Positions 3,624 through 13,075 of a stretch of 13,075 bases of DNA are shown here, piece after piece; position 1 is the first letter of the stretch, and each line of letters opens with the position of its first letter. Position numbers and translations under genes: made by a program. Origin of the DNA: Thainema sp. (GTDB lineage Bacteria > Cyanobacteriota > Cyanobacteriia > Phormidesmidales > Phormidesmidaceae). Under the pieces are notes generated by a model. That model made no database searches. It was not told the origin of the DNA and saw nothing but the letters and a program-made list of their open reading frames with translations. The stretch is from contig JBQLZK010000113.1 in assembly GCA_052168235.1 (NCBI GenBank), forward strand, positions 1 to 13,075, read 5' to 3'.

Positions 3624-4730
3624 ATGCAACAACGACGCCTCAAGGCTTATCTTGAGCTTATTCAAGAGCTACTGAGCTGTCCCAGTGGGGAAGAGTGGAT
3701 TCGATTGCGGCAGCATGAAGATTTAGTTGACGCTGGTTTTGTGCAAACAATGGAGCAGGTAGCCACGTCCCTCGCCCAAGAAGGTGACATGCAGCGCGCC
3801 ACGTTTCTGCACAACTGGGCCGGACAGCTGCATCATATTCTGACTCAAACGACTGCTCCGCCACGGGAGGAAAAGTCAAAGGCTTATCTAGACTTTATTC
3901 AATTGCTCCTGGGCGCTTCGCCGAAAGAACAGCAGCAGTTGATTGCGGCCAATCAAGACCTGATTGGGCCAGGATTGTTCAACATGATGCGGCAGATTGG
4001 GGCCCAGCTAGCCGCGCAGGGCAATCGTGATGCAGGGATTTACCTGACTAATCTATCTGAAGAAATGCGCAAGCTGTGGCTGCAGCAGCACGGCTTTCAG
4101 TCACCGCCGCTCAGTGCCGAGGTGACCGAGCCACGCGCTAAAGGAGAACCGGCAAGCTACAAACAATCTAAGCCATCCTCTACCCGGCAACCCACCAGCA
4201 AAGCGCCAACCACCCCGCAGGACGCTCAGAAATCACCAACTGCGGCTCAATCAGCTCCACCGGTTGTTGATCCGACAATTCCTGATCCGTGGGCAGAATC
4301 AGACTCGTCTTCAGAAGGAACTCCAAGTGAGACCGCTGCCAGTGCGGCTGTTGCGGCCCCAGCGACGTTGGCAAACTCTACGGCTGTATCATCGACGCCA
4401 GAACTGGCTGAGCGAGTTCTACAAGAATTGAATCAGCATCTAGCTGCGATCGCAACTGCTCTGACGGAGCTGACTGAGCGATTGGCCACTCATCCACCGT
4501 CACCACCACCGCCACCACGACCACTCTGGCATTTAGAAGCATTAGAACAGGCCTGCCAAGCGGGCTGGGTGTTAACGACAGAGGAAGTCGAGCAGCTGAT
4601 TCAGGTAAAACCGAAGTGTTCGGCCAAGGAAGATCACTTCGACCGAGGGAACTGGCGGTTTATCAAGGTCGGTAAAATTGGCATTCAAGTGGCATGGCGG
4701 ATTGAGAAACTGGAGCTAGAGCAGACCTAA
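3624..4730 (+). CDS. Hypothetical protein: two N-terminal helical repeats, a Pro/Ser/Thr/Ala-rich linker and a small C-terminal domain
   Basis: 368-aa ORF. Repeats start [11 protein letters not shown] (3642) and [11 protein letters not shown] (3879). Low-complexity middle region. C-terminal domain [12 protein letters not shown]...[17 protein letters not shown]. Confidence 0.8.
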
Positions 4731-5440
4731 CGCTTTTGGGCAGGTGCGATCGCAGTTGTGATCACTCCCGCCGCCACACCTGCGATCGCAGCTACGATGA
4801 GCCCTAACTGATGGGGCAAACCGTAACTGAGTAGCGAAACGACTCCTGCTGTCACCACTGTTGCCGCCATTGGTCGCGTGCGCACATAAGGTACAACCAT
4901 ACCAATAAACGTAGCAACCATCGCGAAATCCAGTCCCAAATTGGCCAAATTGGGCACCAACCGTCCGGCAGTCAGTCCAATCCAGGTGCAAAGCTGCCAG
5001 CTACTATACATGGTTAACGCCGCCCCAATGTAGTACCAGTGCTTATAGGGACTCTGATCCGGCTGCTCATAGCGACGAATCGTCACCATAAAGGCTTCAT
5101 CGGTTAGCCAAAAGCCAATCGGCACCTTCCAGTGCTGCGGCAGATGGCGCACGTGGGGCACTAGACTGGCGGCATACAGCAAATGACGCAAGTTGACGAC
5201 AAAGGTTGTTAGCACAATCAACGGCAGGCTGCTACCTGCTGCTAACAACCCCAATGCGATAAACTGAGCCGATCCAGCAAACACAAAGGCCGACATGCCA
5301 ACTGTCGCACTAAACGGTAATCCACCGCTCTGCGCCAGTGTACCAAAAATGATACCAAACGGAATCGCACCAACCACCAGCGGCACAATTCCGCGCGCAC
5401 CAGCAAAAAATTCAGTTCTAGGCGTAGATACGTGGGGCAT
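4727..5440 (-). CDS. azlC: AzlC family branched-chain amino acid exporter permease
   Basis: [37 protein letters not shown] and [11 protein letters not shown] motifs; highly hydrophobic. Start is ATG 5440 or TTG 5467. The stop codon overlaps the stop of the convergent gene (4727-4730). Confidence 0.9.
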
Positions 5441-5555: not shown

Positions 5556-5996
5556 ATGCAGACTGGTGGAACAAAACGCTTCATTTTGGTACTAGATCAT
5601 AATCCTGAGCATGTTGATACTATCCAGCGATCCCTGTGCAGCAGCGGCAAACCTTACCATCTAGAAACGATTGGCGATGGCGATCGTGCTTTAGATTTCT
5701 TACATCGTCGTGACCCATACAGTGAAGCCGCTCATCCTGATTTAATCCTGCTGGATCTCAATCTGCCGGGACGGAATGGTAGAGAAATTTTGGCTGACAT
5801 TAAGACCGACAGCAGCCTAAAGCGAATTCCCACGATTGTATTCACGGTATCCGACAGCGATGCTGACATTTTGTACAGTTACACCCACCAAGGTAACTGC
5901 TACGTGGTGAAGTCGTCTGACTTGGAGCAGCTATCTCAAATTGTCAAACGGATTGAGGATTTTTGGCTGGAAATTGTGACATTGCCAGTGGAGTGA
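5556..5996 (+). CDS. Single-domain response regulator, Rcp1-like paralog with atypical acidic pocket
   Basis: PDLILLDLNLPG, NCYVVK and C-terminal FWLE as in the Rcp1/RcpA family. LVLDHN replaces the usual LVEDN. Confidence 0.88.
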   Translation: MQTGGTKRFILVLDHNPEHVDTIQRSLCSSGKPYHLETIGDGDRALDFLHRRDPYSEAAHPDLILLDLNLPGRNGREILADIKTDSSLKRIPTIVFTVSDSDADILYSYTHQGNCYVVKSSDLEQLSQIVKRIEDFWLEIVTLPVE

Positions 5997-6513
5997 AGGA
6001 AGTGCTGCTCTCGTTAGGTATAACTTTTGTGTTGTTGTTTAAACTTTGCGCTCGAAACTAAAATTTACGCAGCTTTTTCTAGGGATTTACTGCTAAGAAA
6101 ATGACCAAAATTCGTGGCTAATCAAAACTTAGAATTGATTTAAGATTTCCCTTGGTGGTTTAAAAATCATCCACGCTATGCTGCAAGTGTGTGGCCTGTG
6201 GTGATAGCCCAAGTCGCTATTGGTATAAGTTTCTTTGGCATCAGTAGGCGAACGTAATTCAAAGCACAACAGTTCCCATGACAGAAGTTCACACGACAGA
6301 TCTAAGCTTGGTTGAATTAGTTGAATTAAAAGTAAGCAACCCAGCGTGAATATCTTAATGCTGGATTTGCGATCGCATCATCCATTCCCAAACATCCTCA
6401 AAAAAGCTGCCTACTGATCAAGTATTTCTACTCATCTGTCGGACTCACCAGCCTCATAAAAACCGAACACTAGAAGCAAACATTCACAATCTTAATGATT
6501 GGGAGATCTCCCT

Positions 6514-8835
6514 ATGACCGCAGTGAATTTAAATCAAGAAATTAGTCTTGCGGGACTTAACCTAACCAACCTAAAGCAGCCGGATATTAATACGTTGACT
6601 CAAGTGCAGCCTCACGGTGTGCTGTTGGTATTGCAGGAGTCAGATCTAACCGTGCTACAAGTGAGCCGAAATACCCGCACAGCACTGGGATTGCCGCCAG
6701 AAGAGGTACTCGGCAAAACTCTAGATGACTTACTCGATCCCTATCAGGTTGATCAATTCCGGACTGGACTGTATTACGAAAACTTGGACATTATTAACCC
6801 GACTAAAGTTTGGGTGAAGCGCCAGGGAGATGACTACGGCGTTTACGATGCCATTTTTCACCGCAGCGCAGATGGGTTCTTGATTGTGGAGTTGGAACCC
6901 GCTCTGACGCAGGAAACTATTCCCTTCCTGAGCTTTTATCACCTCGCTAGAGCTTCGATCAGCCAGCTTGAGGCAACGCCGAATCTAGTGGATTTCTGTC
7001 GCATCATTGTCCATGAGGTACGTCGCGTCACTGGTTTTGACCGGGTGATGCTCTACAAATTCGACGATGACGGTCATGGTGAGGTGCTAGCTGAAGAGTT
7101 AGTTGAGGGTATGGAATCCTATCTGGGTCTATATTTCCCAGAATCAGATGTACCACAGCCTGCCCGCAAGATGTTCCTCTCCAATTGGATTCGGGTGATC
7201 CCCGATGCCAAGGCGGAACCTGTCGATTTGTATCCGGCCAATAATCCCGTGACGGGCCAGCCAACGGATTTAATCATGTCCGTTCTGCGTCAGCCCTACC
7301 GCTGCCATATTGAATACCTCAGCCACATGCAGGTGGGATCGTCGCTGACCATTTCGCTGATGAAGGATCAGAAGCTCTGGGGTCTAATTGCCTGCCACCA
7401 CCGTACACCCAAGCAGGTGCCTTACGAACTGCGGAAAGCCTGTGAATTTCTGGGTCGGGTGATTTTCTCTGAAATCTCCACCCGCGAAGAGGAAGCCGAC
7501 CATAACTACCGGATGAAGCTGGCTCAGGTGCAGTCCCGGTTAGTTGACCGGATGGCGCAGGAAGACTACTTCGTGCATGGTCTGGTGCAGCAGGAGCCGA
7601 GTCTGCTGGACTTGGTTGACGCCAAAGGGGCCGCGATTTGCTTCAACGGTCACTGGACAACGATTGGCCGCACGCCGTCTGAGGAAGAGTTGAACTATCT
7701 GGTGCAGTGGCTGAATAAGACCGTCGATGGCGAGATTTTTGAAACTAGTGCGCTGCCATTGGTTTACTCCGATGCCCAGCGATTCAAAGACGTAGCCAGT
7801 GGTTTGCTCGCAATCCCGATCTCGAAGCGCAGCTACGTGCTGTGGTTCCGACCGGAAGTCATTCAAACCGTCAACTGGGGCGGCGATCCGAATAATGCTT
7901 ACACATTAGAAGGTGAAGCTGACAATCAGTGGCTCTGTCCCCGTAAGTCTTTCCATCTCTGGAAAGAAACAGTAAAGCTGCAGTCGCTGCCCTGGAAATC
8001 GGTGGAGATTCGGGCGGCACTAGAACTGCGTAAAGCAATCGTCAACATTGTTCTGCGACAGGCGGAAGAGTTGGCCTTACTGGCTCAGGATCTGGAGCGT
8101 TCGAATGCCGAGCTGAAGCGGTTTGCCTACGTTGCGTCCCATGATTTGCAGGAACCGCTAAATCAGGTGGCTAACTTTGTGCAGCTTCTGGAAATGCGCT
8201 ACGATGCCGAGCTGGGTCAAGACGGTAAAGAGTTTATTGGCTTTGCCGTTGAGGGCGTCAGCCTGATGCAGACCCTGATCGACGATGTATTGGCCTATTC
8301 CAAGGTTGATCTGAAGGGGATTGATCGGGAGCTGATCGACGTGCAGGATTCGCTGGATCAAGCGATGAATAATCTGCGCGGACGGATTGCGGACGCCAAC
8401 GCTGCGATTACCGTGGATTTATTGCCGACCATCGTGGCCGACGGCACGCAGCTCATGCAGCTCTTCCAGAACCTGATTGGCAACGCGATTAAGTTCCGCA
8501 AGCCGTCAGAGCTACCGCGCATCCACATTGGCGTGCAGCGTCAGGAAGATGCTTGGCTGTTCTCAGTCAAGGACAACGGCATTGGCCTTGACCCACAGTT
8601 TGCCGAGCGCATTTTCATCATCTTCCAGCGGCTTCATACTCGGGATGAGTATCCCGGTTCCGGTATGGGACTGGCGATCTGTAAGAAGATTGTCGAATGT
8701 CATCGGGGCCGCATTTGGGTTGAATCCCAAGTGGGAGAAGGCGCAACGTTTTATTTCACCATTCCGGTTGAAGGACGCGATCGCAATCATGGTAATGGAC
8801 GAAAAGCCCAAACGTATCTTTTTGATCGAGGATAA
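6514..8835 (+). CDS. cph1: Cyanobacterial phytochrome (Cph1/CphA type): PAS-GAF-PHY-HisKA-HATPase
   Basis: QPHG PAS start, GFDRVMLY, PESDVP, bilin-binding Cys in the GAF domain (YRCHIEY, codon 7303-7305), LWGLIACHH, WGG and PRKSF tongue, H-box ASHDLQEPL, N/G1/F/G2 boxes. ATG 6514 follows GGAG at 6502-6505. Confidence 0.95.
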   Translation: MTAVNLNQEISLAGLNLTNLKQPDINTLTQVQPHGVLLVLQESDLTVLQVSRNTRTALGLPPEEVLGKTLDDLLDPYQVDQFRTGLYYENLDIINPTKVWVKRQGDDYGVYDAIFHRSADGFLIVELEPALTQETIPFLSFYHLARASISQLEATPNLVDFCRIIVHEVRRVTGFDRVMLYKFDDDGHGEVLAEELVEGMESYLGLYFPESDVPQPARKMFLSNWIRVIPDAKAEPVDLYPANNPVTGQPTDLIMSVLRQPYRCHIEYLSHMQVGSSLTISLMKDQKLWGLIACHHRTPKQVPYELRKACEFLGRVIFSEISTREEEADHNYRMKLAQVQSRLVDRMAQEDYFVHGLVQQEPSLLDLVDAKGAAICFNGHWTTIGRTPSEEELNYLVQWLNKTVDGEIFETSALPLVYSDAQRFKDVASGLLAIPISKRSYVLWFRPEVIQTVNWGGDPNNAYTLEGEADNQWLCPRKSFHLWKETVKLQSLPWKSVEIRAALELRKAIVNIVLRQAEELALLAQDLERSNAELKRFAYVASHDLQEPLNQVANFVQLLEMRYDAELGQDGKEFIGFAVEGVSLMQTLIDDVLAYSKVDLKGIDRELIDVQDSLDQAMNNLRGRIADANAAITVDLLPTIVADGTQLMQLFQNLIGNAIKFRKPSELPRIHIGVQRQEDAWLFSVKDNGIGLDPQFAERIFIIFQRLHTRDEYPGSGMGLAICKKIVECHRGRIWVESQVGEGATFYFTIPVEGRDRNHGNGRKAQTYLFDRG

Positions 8836-9235
8836 TCGGGGCGATATTCGACTGATTCAAGAAGCCCTCAAGAGCAGTAATGTACCTTGCGAGGTCGAGA
8901 TTGCTCGCGATGGCATGGAGGCAATGGCCTACCTGCAGCAGGATGGGGAAGATGCGATCGCACATCGTCCCGACCTCATCCTGCTGGACTTGAACCTGCC
9001 GAAGAAAGATGGTCGGGAGGTGCTAGCTGAAATCAAGGCTGACGAAGCGCTCAAGCACATCCCGATTATCGTGCTGACGACATCCCGCAATGAGGAGGAC
9101 ATTAGCAAGAGCTATGATCTATACGTGAACTGCTATATCTCCAAATCGCGGAATCTAGCGCAACTGTTCAAAATCGTTCGAGGGATTGAGGCATTTTGGT
9201 TAGAGACAGCCAAACTACCGTCCAACGGCCCTTAG
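8789..9235 (+). CDS. rcp1: Phytochrome cognate response regulator Rcp1/RcpA
   Basis: IFLIEDNRGD, PDLILLDLNLPKKDGREVL, VLTTS, NCYISK and FWLE motifs; directly follows cph1. Start is ATG 8789 or 8795, overlapping the cph1 3' end. Confidence 0.93.
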   Translation: MVMDEKPKRIFLIEDNRGDIRLIQEALKSSNVPCEVEIARDGMEAMAYLQQDGEDAIAHRPDLILLDLNLPKKDGREVLAEIKADEALKHIPIIVLTTSRNEEDISKSYDLYVNCYISKSRNLAQLFKIVRGIEAFWLETAKLPSNGP

Positions 9236-11271
9236 GCAAACCGCTCGTCAACGTCCTGCTGATTGAGGACAATGTGGCAGAAGCTCGTCTGATCCAAGAA
9301 GTCCTCAAAGGAACGCCACGCAGCCGCTTTGTCCTGTCCCACGCCAAGCGCTTGGGAGAAGCGATTGAGCGGCTCGGTGCTGATTCGTTTGACGTGGCAC
9401 TGCTGGATCTGACGCTGCCGGACAGTAGCGGCTTGGAGTCCCTGGATCGGCTGATTCGGGATGCGCCAACTCTGCCGATTGTGGTGTTAACGAACACCAA
9501 CGATGATGACTTAGCCGTGGAAGCGGTGCGGCACGGAGCGCAGGACTATCTGATGAAGCGGCAGATGAACCAAGAGCTACTGGTGCGATCGCTGCGCTAC
9601 GCGATTGAGCGCAAGCAAACCGCTGTAGCGCTGCGGCAGGCGAATGAGGCGCTGGAAGAGCGGGTGCAGGAGCGCACAGCCGAGTTAGAAACGGCCAACG
9701 AGCAACTGCGCCAAGAAGTCGTGCAGCGCCAGCGGGTTCAGGAACGGCTGACGTTGGCTCAAAAAGCAGCCAAAATGGGCGCGTTTGAGTGGGATATCCC
9801 CTCGGATCAAATTAGATGGGGCGTGGAATTAGAGAAGAGCGCAGCACAGACTACTGCTGATTCACTCGCATCCTTGAAATCCTCTGTATCAGGCAGCTTT
9901 GGCAACTATCAGAGCAAATGGATCTGGACACTGGATCCCAATGACTTAGAGCGAGTTGAACAGGAATTGCACCAAGCTGTCCAGTCCGGACAGGGGTTGA
10001 ATACAGAGTTTCGTATTTCTGATGATGCAGGCAAGGTGCGGTGGATTGCGATTCAAAGCAGCTTATTTACTAATGTAGCGGGCCATCCTCTACGGCTGCT
10101 GGGCATCTACATGGACATTACCGAGAAGAAGCACCTAGAAGAACAGTTCCTGCGGGCGCAACGGCTGGAAAGTTTAGGGACGCTTGCTAGCGGCATCGCT
10201 CATGATTTAAACAATATCCTAACCCCCATTCTACTAGCAGTCCAACTGCTACCTCGTATGATGCCCCATCTCAATGAACCAACTCGTCAACGGCTAGAAA
10301 TTCTAGAAAATAGCGCTCACCGAGGCGTTGATTTAGTGAAGCAAATTCTTGCGTTTGCCCGAGGAGTAGAGGGTAAGCGCTTCAGCCTGCAAGTTAGCCC
10401 GCTGCTGAAGGAAATTAACAAGTTAGTGCGGCAAACGCTGCCCAAGTCGATTGAAATTCAAGCTGACATTGATCCTAATCTGTGGACGGTGTCCGGCGAT
10501 GCGACTCAACTGCATCAGGTGTTTATGAATCTCTGCGTCAATGCCCGCGATGCGATGTCGAACGGTGGCACGTTGCAAATTACGGCAGAGAACAAGCTGG
10601 TGGATGAGCAGTTGGCTCAACTGCATTTAGAGGCACAGGTTGGACGCTACGTCCTAATCACCATCAGTGATACGGGCTCCGGCATTCCACCCGATATTCT
10701 GCATCGAATTTTCGACCCCTTTTTCACGACTAAAGAGGTTGGTAAGGGTACGGGACTAGGTCTATCAGCGGTTTTGGGAATTGTTAACAGCCACGGTGGC
10801 TTTATTGATGTCGTGAGCGAAGTAGGTAGTGGCAGCCAATTTAAGGTTTATTTACCAGCAACGGAGGAGGCTGTGCCCAAACCGATCGATTCCCTGGATC
10901 TACTGGCTGGACATGGCGAGTTAGTTTTAGTCGTAGATGATGAACCTGCTATCTGCGAGATTACCCAGACGACGCTCGAAGCCTACAATTATCGAGTAAT
11001 AACAGCTCAAGATGGCGCAGATGCGATCGCACTTTTAGCGGAGCATAAAGACGACGTTTACAGCGTCCTGATGGATTTAATGATGCCCAATATGGATGGC
11101 CTGTCAGCTATTCCAGTTATGCGCCGCATTAGTCCTAATCTACGAATCATTGCCACTAGTGGCTTAAACTCTACCGATGCTGCTGCCCAGGCCGAAAAGC
11201 TTGGCTTTCAAGGCTTTTTACCAAAACCTTTTGCGGCACAAGAATTACTACAAATTTTGAGATCAGAGTAG
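9196..11271 (+). CDS. Hybrid sensor histidine kinase (REC - coiled coil - PAS/PAC - HisKA - HATPase - REC)
   Basis: N-terminal REC (LLIEDN, LLDLTLPD), PAC motif (RWI...MDITEKK), H-box GIAHDLNNIL, N-box NLCVNARDAM, FDPFFTTK..GKGTGLGL, C-terminal REC (VVDDE, LMDLMMP, KP). The TTG 9196 start is uncertain. Confidence 0.93.
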   Translation: MVRDSQTTVQRPLGKPLVNVLLIEDNVAEARLIQEVLKGTPRSRFVLSHAKRLGEAIERLGADSFDVALLDLTLPDSSGLESLDRLIRDAPTLPIVVLTNTNDDDLAVEAVRHGAQDYLMKRQMNQELLVRSLRYAIERKQTAVALRQANEALEERVQERTAELETANEQLRQEVVQRQRVQERLTLAQKAAKMGAFEWDIPSDQIRWGVELEKSAAQTTADSLASLKSSVSGSFGNYQSKWIWTLDPNDLERVEQELHQAVQSGQGLNTEFRISDDAGKVRWIAIQSSLFTNVAGHPLRLLGIYMDITEKKHLEEQFLRAQRLESLGTLASGIAHDLNNILTPILLAVQLLPRMMPHLNEPTRQRLEILENSAHRGVDLVKQILAFARGVEGKRFSLQVSPLLKEINKLVRQTLPKSIEIQADIDPNLWTVSGDATQLHQVFMNLCVNARDAMSNGGTLQITAENKLVDEQLAQLHLEAQVGRYVLITISDTGSGIPPDILHRIFDPFFTTKEVGKGTGLGLSAVLGIVNSHGGFIDVVSEVGSGSQFKVYLPATEEAVPKPIDSLDLLAGHGELVLVVDDEPAICEITQTTLEAYNYRVITAQDGADAIALLAEHKDDVYSVLMDLMMPNMDGLSAIPVMRRISPNLRIIATSGLNSTDAAAQAEKLGFQGFLPKPFAAQELLQILRSE

Positions 11272-11289: not shown

Positions 11290-11649
11290 CTACGCAGGTC
11301 TTCTTTGAATCTGTTGGGTAGTGTCATCAAAACTGCGATCGCATCTTCGGTTTGCACGGTCTGATTGGCCTAAGCCGTAATTTCGGTAACAGTGCCAGAT
11401 GTGGGAGCCTGAATCATACGCAGGTCGCCAACTGGCCGAATGATGGCCGGAGCCTTGGCCGTGACGCTGTATTTGAATAAGCTCGCAAACGTCAACTCCC
11501 CCCCAAAGAGGCCGAGCAAGGCGATGCCGCCCAGTTTCGACCAGCGAGAAATGGGCGGCAAAAACGCGTCGGGGGTGACGGCTCGGAGTAGTATGGGCGG
11601 CTTAACGGTCACATCTGGAGAATCAAAAATTGATGAATGATCAGAACAT
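11290..11649 (-). pseudogene. Truncated HlyD-family membrane fusion protein of the cyanobacterial peptide-export (type I secretion) type
   Basis: FLPPISRW, a transmembrane segment, KYSVTAKAPAIIRPVGDLRMIQAPTSGTV. In-frame TAG at 11370-11372, after which similarity continues (ANQTVQTEDAIAV). A 1-nt frameshift at about 11329-11332 then gives DDTTQQIQ. The rest of the gene is missing. The start region is probably also frameshifted (ATG 11649 is out of frame with GTG 11612). Confidence 0.85.
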
Positions 11650-11838
11650 GAGGCTCATCGCCCAGGTTAAATGATCATAGGATTTCAGCTTAACTCGAAT
11701 ACGCTCATTGTTACCTCCCTGAAGATCGGCCTGAGTCTCTTCAGGAATTTCACACCATAAATTATTACTGGTGAGGCTGTTGCTGGCGCAGGATATTTGA
11801 TGATCTTTTATCTAACTATGTTGTGAATCTAATGTCAT
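11641..11838 (-). pseudogene. Double-glycine leader peptide gene 5 (core resembles ribosomal protein uS10 N-terminus), interrupted by an in-frame TAG
   Basis: Manual translation: MTLDSQHS*IKDHQISCASNSLTSNNLWCEIPEETQADLQGG|NNERIRVKLKSYDHLTWAMSLMF*. GGAG lies 8 nt before ATG 11838. TAG at 11812-11814. Confidence 0.75.
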
Positions 11839-11862
11839 TGATTTCACTCCCAAATATCGCGA

Positions 11863-12027
11863 TTAGATACCACTTTGTTGAGCAACGTGAGTTAGTTCAT
11901 GGGCTAGAAGACTGGATCCTCCAGAGAAAACTTGTGTCTCACAATCAGACAATTCAGTAAAATGCTTAGTCAGGTTTTCAAGATTAGAGCATTTATTTTG
12001 CTTATTTTGCTTATTTTGCTTATTCAT
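11863..12027 (-). CDS. Double-glycine leader peptide gene 4, 54 aa (core resembles the DUF4157 HExxH motif)
   Basis: Manual translation: MNKQNKQNKQNKCSNLENLTKHFTELSDCETQVFSGG|SSLLAHELTHVAQQSGI*. Intact ORF below the ORF-track size cutoff. Confidence 0.85.
   Translation of the reverse strand: MNKQNKQNKQNKCSNLENLTKHFTELSDCETQVFSGGSSLLAHELTHVAQQSGI
11993..12024. repeat. 9-bp tandem repeat (TTATTTTGC) x3.5 encoding NKQ repeats in the leader of peptide 4
   Basis: Copies at 11993, 12002 and 12011, plus a partial copy at 12020. Confidence 0.9.
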
Positions 12028-12163
12028 TGTTCTCAATTTAATTCGAGATCACCCAATCTGCGATCGCAGCCCCATCTCTAAACGATTCTGGAAGTGCGAT
12101 CGCAAACTCTAATTCAGGTTAAGACAGCCAGATCAAAAAACTGAATTTCAAACCTGGAGCTTA

Positions 12164-12318
12164 TCAAGTACCACCTTGTCCTGAACCATCACAAGGAAAC
12201 GAGTAGCCGAAATCTTTGCCTCCGCTAAGAGTTGATTGCGTATCGTTCGACAGCTCTTGCCAAAGTGATGGTTTAGTTAACAAGTGTTGGGGGAAGGCTT
12301 TGCAATATTACGTTTCAT
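12164..12318 (-). pseudogene. Double-glycine leader peptide gene 3 (core resembles the PsaB FX-binding loop), 1-nt frameshift in the leader
   Basis: Adding one base to the G5 run at 12289-12293 gives MKRNIAKPSPQHLLTKPSLWQELSNDTQSTLSGG|KDFGYSFPCDGSGQGGT*. As written, the ATG 12318 frame stops after 13 codons. An in-frame TTG could give a shorter leader. Confidence 0.8.
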
Positions 12319-12378
12319 AGGATTTTCCAGTTACAGCAAAGTGTCTGACGATAAAGGATACAGCTAGAGCTGCTAGTC

Positions 12379-12600
12379 TTACGCATCCACACGTCCGCGC
12401 AAAGTTGCAAGTTCCGCTGAAAACTCTTCTTGGAGCCGTTGGGTGTTACTGGTTGCTGCCGCAAAGAGGAAAATTACGCTGCCGCCTGAGATTGCTTCCG
12501 TTTCGTTTTCTGAAAGCTCTATTGCATCAAGGACAGGCAAAAGCTCGAGTTGATTTTGGTGTTTACCAGGTAAACCGTTTCTAAATTTTTTATTCTTCAT
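12379..12600 (-). CDS. Double-glycine leader peptide gene 2, 73 aa (core ends in an SLH-porin coiled-coil motif)
   Basis: MKNKKFRNGLPGKHQNQLELLPVLDAIELSENETEAISGG|SVIFLFAAATSNTQRLQEEFSAELATLRGRVDA*. AAGGAG (12607-12612) lies 6 nt before ATG 12600. Confidence 0.85.
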   Translation of the reverse strand: MKNKKFRNGLPGKHQNQLELLPVLDAIELSENETEAISGGSVIFLFAAATSNTQRLQEEFSAELATLRGRVDA

Positions 12601-12686
12601 GAGCATCTCCTTTCCCTCAAAAGGGAAACAGGCTGGAATAGAATTTATTCGACTAAATTGCAATTTTATGATCGCAAATTTATATA

Positions 12687-12863
12687 CTAAAACTCTCCTC
12701 TCGCATCTGCTTGGACAACAACCTTCGTGAAGGCATCAAACATTCCGCCTTGAATTCTGCTCTGAGTCGTTTCAGGAATATCTTGAAGGAATAATATTTT
12801 CTGAATTTGTAGATATTTAGAAGAAAGCTGTCTCATGTTTGGTTTGGTTTGAGTACAGGCCAT
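12687..12863 (-). CDS. Double-glycine leader peptide gene 1, 58 aa (core resembles the phycocyanin beta N-terminus)
   Basis: Manual translation: MACTQTKPNMRQLSSKYLQIQKILFLQDIPETTQSRIQGG|MFDAFTKVVVQADARGEF*. AAGAGG lies 7 nt before ATG 12863. Confidence 0.85.
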   Translation of the reverse strand: MACTQTKPNMRQLSSKYLQIQKILFLQDIPETTQSRIQGGMFDAFTKVVVQADARGEF

Positions 12864-12965
12864 TGATAAACCTCTTTATAGATGTACAAATGTAGTTGAT
12901 CTATGCAGGCTGGGTGAAACAGCAGATGACTAATAGACTTTATTGGAAGTAAAGTTTTTGGGGTT

Positions 12966-13012
12966 GGAAATTGTTTTGTAGCGCGGCGGAGCCGCGCTAC
13001 AAAACAATTTCC
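12966..13012. repeat. Perfect 22-bp inverted repeat with a 3-nt loop (REP-like / small dispersed repeat, or terminator-like hairpin)
   Basis: GGAAATTGTTTTGTAGCGCGGC-GGA-GCCGCGCTACAAAACAATTTCC. Confidence 0.85.
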
Positions 13013-13075
13013 GATAAGGTCTATAGCGGTTCTCATTCGAATGAGGTACAGTAGCAGTCGTTTATGAACCAGTTG

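Follow-up and report, generated by a model that had tools for sequence, protein, structure and literature searches.

The window, i.e., the whole stretch of DNA that was analysed, comprises 13,075 bp and represents an entire contig. At the end of this contig lies an array of five small reading frames (P1 to P5), all co-oriented and each with a double-glycine (GG) leader, as a sequence-only reading of the same DNA had proposed; all five are on the minus strand. The start of P1 is 212 bp away from the contig end, and the array is followed by what is left of an HlyD-family adaptor gene. The features are as follows:

11641-12863, minus strand: array of five co-oriented small reading frames, leaders ending in a double-glycine motif
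12687..12863, minus strand: P1 precursor gene, ATG start, 58 aa, AAGAGG 8 nt upstream
12690..12743, minus strand: P1 core, MFDAFTKVVVQADARGEF, corresponding to CpcB residues 1-18 including the initiator Met
12379..12600, minus strand: P2 precursor gene, ATG start, 73 aa, AAGGAG 6 nt upstream
12382..12480, minus strand: P2 core, coiled-coil fragment of an SLH/OprB iron-uptake porin
12164..12283, minus strand: P3 precursor frame, TTG as the sole start, no Shine-Dalgarno sequence, 39 aa
12167..12217, minus strand: P3 core, KDFGYSFPCDGSGQGGT, corresponding to the PsaB FX-cluster loop
11863..12036, minus strand: P4 precursor gene, TTG at 12036, or ATG at 12027 giving 54 aa
11866..11916, minus strand: P4 core, SSLLAHELTHVAQQSGI, corresponding to the HExxH end of the DUF4157/eCIS_core domain
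11641..11811, minus strand: P5 frame, stop to stop, no ATG, GTG or TTG before the GG
11644..11712, minus strand: P5 core, NNERIRVKLKSYDH plus 9 unrelated residues, matching the uS10 N-terminus (residues ~2-19)
11290..11612, minus strand: HlyD-family adaptor remnant, ~110 N-terminal codons, remainder of the gene deleted

The array is AT-rich, with a GC content of 0.38-0.45 compared with 0.50 in the remaining contig; by part, the cores have 0.47, the leaders 0.39 and the spacers 0.38, and GC3 was erratic and gave no verdict on origin. A dispersed hairpin repeat is located at the edge of the array region. The promoter/terminator scan of the array returned fewer sites than shuffled sequence and was uninformative, and the Rfam scan yielded sub-threshold chance matches only.

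The leader ends quoted in the sequence-only reading are exact and can be aligned without gaps. It had also spoken of five small genes; five frames do exist on the minus strand, but P5 lacks a start codon and the start of P3 is doubtful, and the intact-looking precursors are P1, P2 and P4 only. P1 and P2 have good ribosome-binding sites: P1 consists of a 40-aa leader ending in DIPETTQSRIQGG, an 18-aa core and then the stop, P2 of a 40-aa leader ending in ELSENETEAISGG and a 33-aa core (with the alternative TTG start at 12663, the product has 94 aa), and the latter has been predicted as the 73-aa peptide P0002. P3 combines a 22-aa leader ending in ELSNDTQSTLSGG with a 17-aa core. The leader of P4 contains an (NKQ)n repeat and ends in ELSDCETQVFSGG, its core has 17 aa, and the 54-aa form has been predicted as P0017. 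P5, with the leader end EIPEETQADLQGG and a 23-aa core, is probably a dead copy; a 38-nt stretch of its leader DNA shows 71% identity with the leader of P1. GG is present in all five frames, preceded by I, I, L, F and L at position -4 and by I, L, L, L and I at position -12, while position -7 is occupied by T or Q; the Acaryochloris CTB peptides have Q at this position and the classical residue is Leu.

Each leader continues, in frame and within 0-4 residues of the GG, into a piece of a different protein, 12-30 residues long, with a stop 0-9 codons after it. The parents are the 5' end of cpcB, a porin coiled coil, the psaB FX loop, the DUF4157 HExxH motif and the 5' end of rpsJ, and hmmscan, phmmer against the PDB and tblastn bear out the five parents originally named (CpcB, SLH porin, PsaB, DUF4157 and uS10). 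For P1, hmmscan aligned positions 1-17 of the 171 positions of the CpcB profile TIGR01339 (E = 1.3e-3), all 34 phmmer matches in the PDB are phycocyanin beta chains with 16 of 17 residues identical, and tblastn with the core against plasmids and phages found three cyanobacterial cpcB genes. P2 matched positions 79-100 of 485 in the iron-uptake porin profile NF033921 (E = 6e-5) and Pfam OprB (E = 0.013) in hmmscan; within its core QRLQEEFSAELATLRGRVDA is identical to the porin in 20 of 20 residues, eight plasmid porin genes are 100% identical to P2 residues 54-73, and the core DNA shares 78-81% nucleotide identity with porin genes. Further upstream in P2, beyond an in-frame gap of 8-9 residues, LFAAATS corresponds to LIAAATS of the porin, and the first four core residues as well as the gap-bridging NT are without a porin counterpart. 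The P3 core was placed by hmmscan at positions 547-567 of 734 in the PsaB profile TIGR01336 (E = 4.1e-5; Pfam PsaA_PsaB E = 2.4e-4), the best 60 of 171 phmmer matches in the PDB are all PsaB with 15 of 17 residues identical, and the core DNA is 79% identical to Fischerella psaB_2 and 83% identical to psaB of phage P-TIM68; the P3 stop stands at the position of the second Cys of PsaB. P4 scored above the gathering cut-off of PF13699 (eCIS_core/DUF4157) with 25.6 bits against 22, covering positions 60-77 of 79 (hmmscan, E = 1.4e-5), and 8 of its 11 tblastn matches are annotated as DUF4157 genes. The uS10 match of P5 is the weakest among the five: hmmscan gave no match for P5, its core covers ~16 of ~100 uS10 residues, and the four tblastn matches all belong to the uS10 gene family (one annotated as rpsJ; E = 10), but when the core alone was compared with the PDB by phmmer, 18 of 18 matches were to uS10 residues 2-21 (best E = 0.044), and the whole frame as query gave uS10 in three of four matches. 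The parent segments are intracellular or periplasmic, so an extracellular role of the copies is not obvious.

We used as a control nine double-glycine peptides encoded beside homologous HlyD genes on cyanobacterial plasmids; none of the nine control cores matched, at E<=0.01, any family other than bacteriocins and RiPPs. The five cores had been interpreted as independent mimics of conserved proteins; judged from the alignments, they are instead homologous fragments of real genes and not convergent, because the P1 core includes Met1 of CpcB, the porin identity of 20/20 residues is accompanied by the upstream stretch across an in-frame deletion, and the nucleotide identity to the porin and psaB genes amounts to 78-83%. 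Their membership in the parent families is limited to fragments, with no full-length foldable domain in any of the five. Parent homology was not found beyond the core boundaries of P1 or P2, and tblastn and blastn against plasmids and phages recovered the parent gene families again.

Relatives of the precursors are scarce. Searches of two protein sets (5.8 billion and 1.84 billion sequences), in which small ORFs are under-called, found one relative of P1, one of P4 and none of P2. The sole match of P1 was P0001, a 58-aa peptide, 98% identical, on another contig of 551 bp; P4 retrieved itself and P0015, a diverged peptide (82% identical) on a separate contig of 6,516 bp, and P2 retrieved only itself and 12 porin fragments but no GG peptide. 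The leader profile gave four matches at E<=1e-3 among the 1.84 billion representatives, namely P2 of the window, P0001, P0015 and one junk repeat. Among plasmids and phages, tblastn and blastn revealed no leader relatives of P1, P2, P4, P5 or the whole array, parent genes only, and an Acaryochloris CTB peptide used as query found its own record only. The ESM Atlas gave nothing usable for P4, and its matches to P2 (<=0.86) are leads only. As the array lies at a contig end, an artefact might be suspected, i.e., a chimeric contig or chance open frames; this is hardly credible, however, since P1-like and P4-like peptides occur on independent contigs of other origin, in-frame joins of fifty bases behind five different leaders do not resemble misassembly, and chance is ruled out by the E-values and the control set.

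The HlyD remnant behind the array, also noted in the sequence-only reading, was recovered by tblastn: all 12 matches fell on N-termini of HlyD-type adaptor genes from cyanobacteria, 10 of which are annotated as HlyD. It aligns to residues ~10-123 of adaptors with 448-504 aa, is interrupted by an in-frame stop at 11370-11372, and adjoins the 3' end of a convergent histidine-kinase gene (9196-11271, plus strand). Homologous HlyD genes elsewhere are found in LanM and MvdC/D clusters. No gene for a peptidase-ABC transporter (PCAT) is present on the 13,075-bp contig, the DNA downstream of HlyD being deleted, and no modifying enzyme was found among the ORFs of this contig, which is truncated, so that the lack of such an enzyme here is not proof of its absence. 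The broken HlyD, the missing PCAT on the contig, the startless P5 and the poor, TTG-only start of P3 show that the locus is decaying in this genome. Export from the present locus cannot work, and the earlier suggestion that the cell secretes a library of such peptides is, in view of the HlyD stump, the missing PCAT and the two defective frames, unlikely to apply to this genome.

The main rival to a function of the peptides is that a dying bacteriocin locus, situated in a variable region flanked by repeats, acquired bits of genes by illegitimate recombination or gene conversion, the frames being unselected and yielding no functional peptide, which we consider rather unlikely overall. Such neutral debris would be consistent with the HlyD stump and its nonsense codon, the startless P5 and the weak start of P3, the lack of the region in the nearest relatives, the hairpin repeat at its edge, the AT-richness of the array, the internal deletion in the porin fragment together with its residues without porin counterpart, and the nine unrelated residues into which the P5 core runs. 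There is also a weak hint of psaB-like DNA beyond the P3 stop (3/500 shuffles with one reference), but it fails with a second reference (58/500). However, each of the five fragments reads in the sense direction and in frame, begins 0-4 residues behind the GG and is followed shortly by a stop, and no leader is followed by unrecognisable junk; by hand computation, five of five sense and in-frame fragments have a chance of (1/6)^5 = 1.3e-4, or of (1/3)^5 = 4e-3 if the orientation is fixed, and such a placement would hardly arise unless selection or a directed mechanism were involved. Furthermore, pairwise identity among the leaders is only 18-37%, implying that the gene copies are old paralogues, yet the cores still show 88-100% likeness to their parents. 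The relative of P4 has also retained the copied motif: between P4 and P0015, 4 of 30 leader positions and 6 of 17 core positions have changed, none of these six lying within SLLAHELTHV (hand-computed chance 7/12376 = 6e-4 for this spared stretch and 49/12376 = 4e-3 for any run of 10). The differences in the tail could be due to one single frameshift, which would weaken the argument from motif retention.

As to a directed mechanism, a recombinase or reverse transcriptase might insert pieces of highly expressed genes behind GG leaders, so that the array would continually sample proteins of the cell itself. Very high expression is typical of four of the five parents (cpcB, psaB, rpsJ and the major porin gene), every core in the array is a captured fragment and a canonical CTB core is missing throughout, and two fragments begin at the extreme 5' end of their parent genes. 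We nevertheless regard directed capture as very improbable, because the 13,075-bp contig contains no integrase, reverse transcriptase or repeat-bounded cassette, the five leader-core junctions, read by eye, have no DNA motif in common, and the leaders are too diverged for a recently active array. To our knowledge, moreover, DUF4157 proteins, the fifth parent, are not known as abundant.

The surroundings of the array were compared by a genome scan anchored on the neighbouring kinase, which returned 80 loci, two of them close (86% and 69% identity); in both of these nearest genomes the orthologous kinase gene is not followed by the array. A link of the array to the adjacent kinases and the phytochrome was ruled out because the synteny persists in a relative lacking the array. 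Similarly, a pheromone with a cognate sensor was rejected: the hybrid kinase gene beside the array is convergent to it, and no array lies downstream of the orthologue with 86% identity in the closer of the two genomes. A related possibility is that the fragments served as raw material for pheromone-like or antimicrobial peptides whose activity is unrelated to the parent. Three of the cores have 17-18 aa, the size of ComC-type signals, PCAT systems export highly varied cargo behind the GG leader (PMC10231218), and the cores of cyanobacterial GG precursors are described as enormously diverse (PMC3140520). This kind of cargo innovation is improbable in our view, as the residues common to P4 and P0015 are exactly the conserved motif of the parent, all five pieces stem from the regions in which their parents are most conserved, an unexpected pattern for a function independent of likeness, and the neighbouring kinase, whose 86% identical orthologue stands without an array, is not linked to the array.

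We are highly confident that what is left here is a former export locus for double-glycine peptides of the CTB type (class II bacteriocin-like), with gene fragments as cores. Its original layout would have been a precursor array followed by the HlyD adaptor and a peptidase-ABC transporter, with the usual bacteriocin core of 50 aa replaced, directly behind the GG, by an in-frame copied piece. The C39 domain of a PCAT cleaves after the GG, and the PCAT/HlyD/TolC channel exports the peptide; following this established biology, the precursors would be cut behind their leaders and linear peptides of 17-33 aa set free, each of them identical or near-identical to a conserved segment of an abundant cell protein. 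That the fragments have been kept by selection on the peptide product can only be proposed tentatively; five of five sense, in-frame fragments and the retention of the copied motif in P0015 favour such a function at the peptide level, in which the peptides might be present or past cargo acting through their likeness to the parents, as extracellular signal, decoy or competitor. The roles put forward in the sequence-only reading (decoys, danger-signal mimics, dominant-negative inhibitors) are likewise speculative. Overall, we consider exported or once-exported fragment peptides under peptide-level selection to be the best reading of the locus, with a probability of roughly 45%. A more far-reaching version, namely that selection maintains, in a lineage of filamentous cyanobacteria, PCAT/HlyD-exported literal copies of the most conserved segments of phycocyanin, photosystem I, the major porin, uS10 and a metalloprotease-like DUF4157 motif which act outside the producer by likeness, appears doubtful; in that case the peptides might function as false 'lysed-kin' danger signals, as decoys for proteins recognising these segments, or as competitors of assembly after uptake, and the capture of fragments behind a GG leader would be a way for export systems to gain cargo.

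Known cargo of GG export systems includes bacteriocins, pheromones, RiPPs and biofilm proteins, and cargo made of housekeeping-protein fragments appears to be new: no description of it was found in full-text literature searches, although similar cases may be among the 290 cyanobacterial precursors tabulated with PMC3140520; the sequence-only reading, too, knew of no described system of this kind. Should the fragments be under selection, the array would be an instance of self-protein mimics secreted by a bacterium, with RaxX as the sole partial precedent, and peptide danger signals or decoys in cyanobacterial communities could be tested with five synthetic peptides. If they are not, the locus still shows that gene fragments were captured in frame where leader and core meet, which bears on the origin of the diversity of precursor cores. 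The case is based on one decaying locus and two distant sightings.

Among known systems, the CTB arrays (NF038167) come closest. On the Acaryochloris marina S15 plasmid NZ_CP064927, five small genes are followed by HlyD and then by PCAT; here, too, five co-oriented small genes lie directly upstream of an HlyD gene of the same family, gene order and orientation are the same as far as the HlyD stump, and this stump is 46% identical to the Acaryochloris HlyD. The leaders end in the ELSxxxQ/TxxI/VSGG type, and when 1.58 Mb of retrieved DNA was searched with the leader HMM, the Acaryochloris CTB peptides were the best matches apart from the array's own. In hmmscan, however, the P2 leader reaches only 20.1 bits (E = 5e-4) with NF038167, below the cut-off of 32 and compared with 32.5 for a genuine member, and this match covers profile positions 8-41 of 72, extending across the porin-derived core; P1, P3, P4 and P5 have no match to the profile, and no CTB core (profile positions ~24-72) is present. 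P2 likewise stays below the cut-off of TIGR01847 (bacteriocin_sig; 13.5 bits against 15.7), for which P1, P3, P4 and P5 are unlisted. CTB cores are ~50 aa long, mutually related and covered by the profile, whereas here they are 17-33-aa pieces of unrelated proteins, and the transporter genes are broken or absent.

Streptococcal pheromones of the ComC/CSP type likewise have a GG leader and are exported by a PCAT as linear, unmodified peptides of ~17 aa. They are sensed by a dedicated neighbouring kinase and their cores are not copies of other proteins, whereas the kinase adjoining the present array is conserved without it in a relative; Pfam PF03047 (ComC) appeared in the control matches only. 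The only described case of mimicry by PCAT cargo known to us is RaxX of Xanthomonas oryzae. RaxX is a double-glycine leader peptide exported by the PCAT RaxB and the HlyD-type RaxA, and its mature part resembles the plant PSY hormones (PMC6637879). It is, however, a single peptide, tyrosine-sulfated by RaxST, that mimics a host hormone with a known receptor, while here there are five peptides with no modifying enzyme in view, and the parents are housekeeping proteins of the bacterium's own kind. EbfG1-4 of Synechococcus elongatus PCC 7942 are encoded in an operon of four small GG-motif proteins and are secreted via the C39-peptidase transporter PteB, with no known modification and with a role in biofilms rather than as antibiotics (PMC4997328); their secretion has been demonstrated by mass spectrometry, unlike that of the putative cargo here, and the accessible text of PMC4997328 does not state that their mature parts are fragments of other proteins.

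A comparison can finally be drawn with precursors in which unlike parts have been joined. Prochlorosin-type arrays combine conserved leaders with unrelated cores. In the NHLP and Nif11 leaders, ordinary protein pieces (nitrile hydratase, Nif11) have been recruited into GG-type precursors, as described in PMC3140520. The cores of all three groups are Cys/Ser/Thr-rich substrates of modifying enzymes, in contrast to the present array, in which none are seen; and whereas in NHLP and Nif11 precursors the recruited piece became the leader, here the leader is an ordinary one and the recruited piece is the cargo.

The window makes up an entire contig of 13,075 bp, as the longest contig recorded for its predicted peptides P0002 and P0017 has this length. 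Five small frames (P1-P5), each coding for a double-glycine (GG) leader followed by a core, lie in the same direction on the minus strand of the window and span 12863-11641:

P1, 12687-12863, minus strand, ATG start
P2, 12379-12600, minus strand, ATG start, with TTG at 12663 as an alternative
P3, 12164-12283, minus strand, TTG as sole start
P4, 11863-12036, minus strand, ATG at 12027
P5, 11644-11811, minus strand, stop-to-stop frame with no ATG, GTG or TTG 5' of the GG

The Shine-Dalgarno sequence is good for P1 and P2 and weak for P4; P3 and P5 have none. Because of their start codons and Shine-Dalgarno status, P1, P2 and P4 look intact, and P3 and P5 look doubtful or dead. The five leader ends quoted in the sequence-only reading proved exact, and no gap is needed to align them at the GG; over their length the leaders are mutually only 18-37% identical in pairwise alignment, and are old paralogues. 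The array is AT-rich (GC 0.39 in leaders, 0.38 in spacers and 0.47 in cores vs 0.50 in the rest of the contig). HIP1-type palindromes (GCGATCGC), which are typical of cyanobacterial genomes, occur in or beside it at 11334-11341, 12059-12066 and 12095-12102, none of them at a leader-core junction.

In P1-P4 hmmscan assigned the core portion alone to one of the following families, a different one for each core, and P5 had no family match by this method:

P1 core, TIGR01339 CpcB, positions 1-17, E=1.3e-3
P2 core, NF033921 iron-uptake porin, positions 79-100, E=6e-5 (Pfam OprB, 0.013)
P3 core, TIGR01336 PsaB, positions 547-567, E=4.1e-5
P4 core, PF13699 eCIS_core/DUF4157, positions 60-77 of 79, E=1.4e-5, 25.6 bits (exceeding the gathering score, 22)

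Searches of the PDB and tblastn gave a concordant picture. All 34 PDB matches of P1 were phycocyanin beta chains (16/17 residues identical), and the 60 matches listed for P3, of 171, were all PsaB (15/17 identical). The P5 core alone matched residues 2-21 of uS10 in 18/18 cases (best E=0.044), and three of the four matches of the whole frame were uS10. Among plasmids, P1 matched five records, with cpcB in three cyanobacteria; P2 matched eight porin genes at 100% identity over 20 residues, DUF4157 was annotated in 8 of the 11 records matched by P4, and all four records matched by P5 stood at E=10, the sole annotated one being rpsJ. The resemblance of the cores to CpcB, porin, PsaB, DUF4157 and uS10, proposed in the sequence-only reading, is thus borne out, the uS10 match being the weakest. 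In a control set of nine double-glycine peptides adjoining homologous HlyD genes on cyanobacterial plasmids, no core (0/9) had a match at E<=0.01 outside bacteriocin/RiPP families; the pattern is real, and is no general property of GG peptides beside such HlyD genes.

The cores are fragments of the parent genes and not mimics arisen by convergence, as indicated by the parental methionine in P1 (the first Met of the core aligns with CpcB Met1 in the PDB search), by the gapped porin alignment and by DNA identity. The P2 core spans about 38 porin residues (LFAAATS, an in-frame gap of 8-9 residues, then 20 identical residues), and its DNA is 78-81% identical to porin genes; for the P3 core DNA, identity is 79-83% to the psaB genes found on a Fischerella plasmid and in phage P-TIM68. 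Parent homology begins 0-4 residues past the GG in all five and stops 0-9 residues ahead of the stop codon. It was not found beyond the core borders of P1 and P2; for P3 two references disagreed (3/500 vs 58/500 shuffles).

Relatives of two peptides were found on other contigs, which rules out an artefact. The P1 relative, a 58-aa protein, is 98% identical, with a single change, in the leader. The P4 relative (P0015; 48 aa, 82% identical) differs at 4/30 leader and 6/17 core positions, and all six core changes leave SLLAHELTHV untouched; calculated by hand, the odds of this are 7/12376, or 49/12376 for any run of ten. One frameshift could be the source of the altered P0015 tail. The (NKQ)n run of the P4 leader is encoded by a 9-nt tandem repeat of at least three copies (11993-12024), and P0015 has a shorter run (MNKQNK), a length difference that points to slippage variation in the leader.

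Directly downstream of P5 lies, as had been noted, an HlyD remnant: of an HlyD-family adaptor, the N-terminal fourth is left. Its tblastn matches were N-termini of cyanobacterial adaptor genes in 12/12 cases, and it aligns to residues ~10-123 of proteins of 448-504 aa, with an in-frame stop at 11370-11372, beyond which the gene is absent; next to the stump comes the 3' end of the gene for a hybrid histidine kinase, which is convergent with it. No C39-peptidase ABC transporter (PCAT) is encoded on the 13,075-bp contig. Elsewhere, microviridin, lanthipeptide and other clusters use adaptors of this family. With a broken export route and two degraded genes in this genome, the locus is probably a relic. 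The secreted-library interpretation has partial support: the GG leaders, core matches and HlyD remnant stand, but the cores are no independent mimics, and secretion by this genome is unlikely. In the closest genome available (locus L001, kinase 86% identical) synteny reaches as far as the stop codon of the kinase gene, and no array follows.

The main rival is that the cores are neutral debris within a dying locus, as the broken export route might suggest. All five fragments, however, are in sense, in frame and at the cleavage site, with no leader (0/5) followed by junk; the chance of such placement, by hand calculation, is 1.3e-4, or 4e-3 with orientation given. The leaders have diverged, yet the cores still show 88-100% agreement with their parents; hence selection has maintained the cores, or else fragment capture has been repeated and precise. 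Further, less likely rivals are new cargo with an activity independent of parent likeness and a directed capture mechanism. We favour peptide-level selection on the cores, as exported linear peptides that would act by resembling the parent segment. From established PCAT/HlyD biology, a PCAT would cleave after the GG and, with HlyD, export these peptides.

A two-component run at 5556-11271 comprises a response regulator, a phytochrome-type histidine kinase (PAS_2-GAF-PHY-HisKA-HATPase), a second response regulator and a hybrid kinase that bears two receiver domains. It shares synteny with L001, at ~85% nucleotide identity, and has no link to the array. L001 carries ~4.1 kb of extra DNA (window 4724-4743 vs L001 1388-5522) between homologues of ORF 3624-4730, which is without Pfam match, and the AzlC gene. 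At the end of the contig, a 93-bp element (12931-13023) contains a perfect inverted repeat of 22 bp, whose hairpin arms occupy 12966-12987 and 12991-13012. The element recurs inverted, at 92% identity, at L001 1443-1535; it is therefore a dispersed small MITE-like repeat of this lineage, and may be why assembly stopped there. Elsewhere, a plasmid of Microcoleus vaginatus PCC 9802 (21.9 kb, without annotation) encodes at 9217-9396, just downstream of an HlyD gene, a GG-leader peptide consisting of ELSELELETVSGG and then a 21-aa core rich in Gly and Arg, and three Nostoc and Calothrix plasmids carry PCAT-HlyD pairs of the same HlyD family as the stump, repeatedly adjoining filamentous-haemagglutinin-like and CHASE2 genes.

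No account of cores built of housekeeping-gene fragments turned up in full-text literature searches, and the locus, a single decaying one, is odd and apparently undescribed. In layout it resembles a CTB (NF038167)/class II bacteriocin-type GG export locus: in Acaryochloris marina S15 an adaptor of the same family stands after an array of five genes for CTB-family bacteriocins and ahead of a PCAT, and Acaryochloris CTB peptides were the best foreign matches of a five-leader profile in 1.58 Mb of DNA scanned. It falls outside CTB, however, on score (P2 leader 20.1 bits, cut-off 32) and on core. For mimicry by PCAT cargo, the nearest functional precedent is RaxX with RaxAB (PMC6637879), and the nearest cyanobacterial one for GG cargo that stays unmodified and serves a role other than antibiosis is EbfG1-4 with PteB (PMC4997328). 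Ordinary protein pieces have also been recruited into GG precursors in the NHLP and Nif11 families (PMC3140520); in those families recruitment supplied the leader, whereas here it supplied the cargo.
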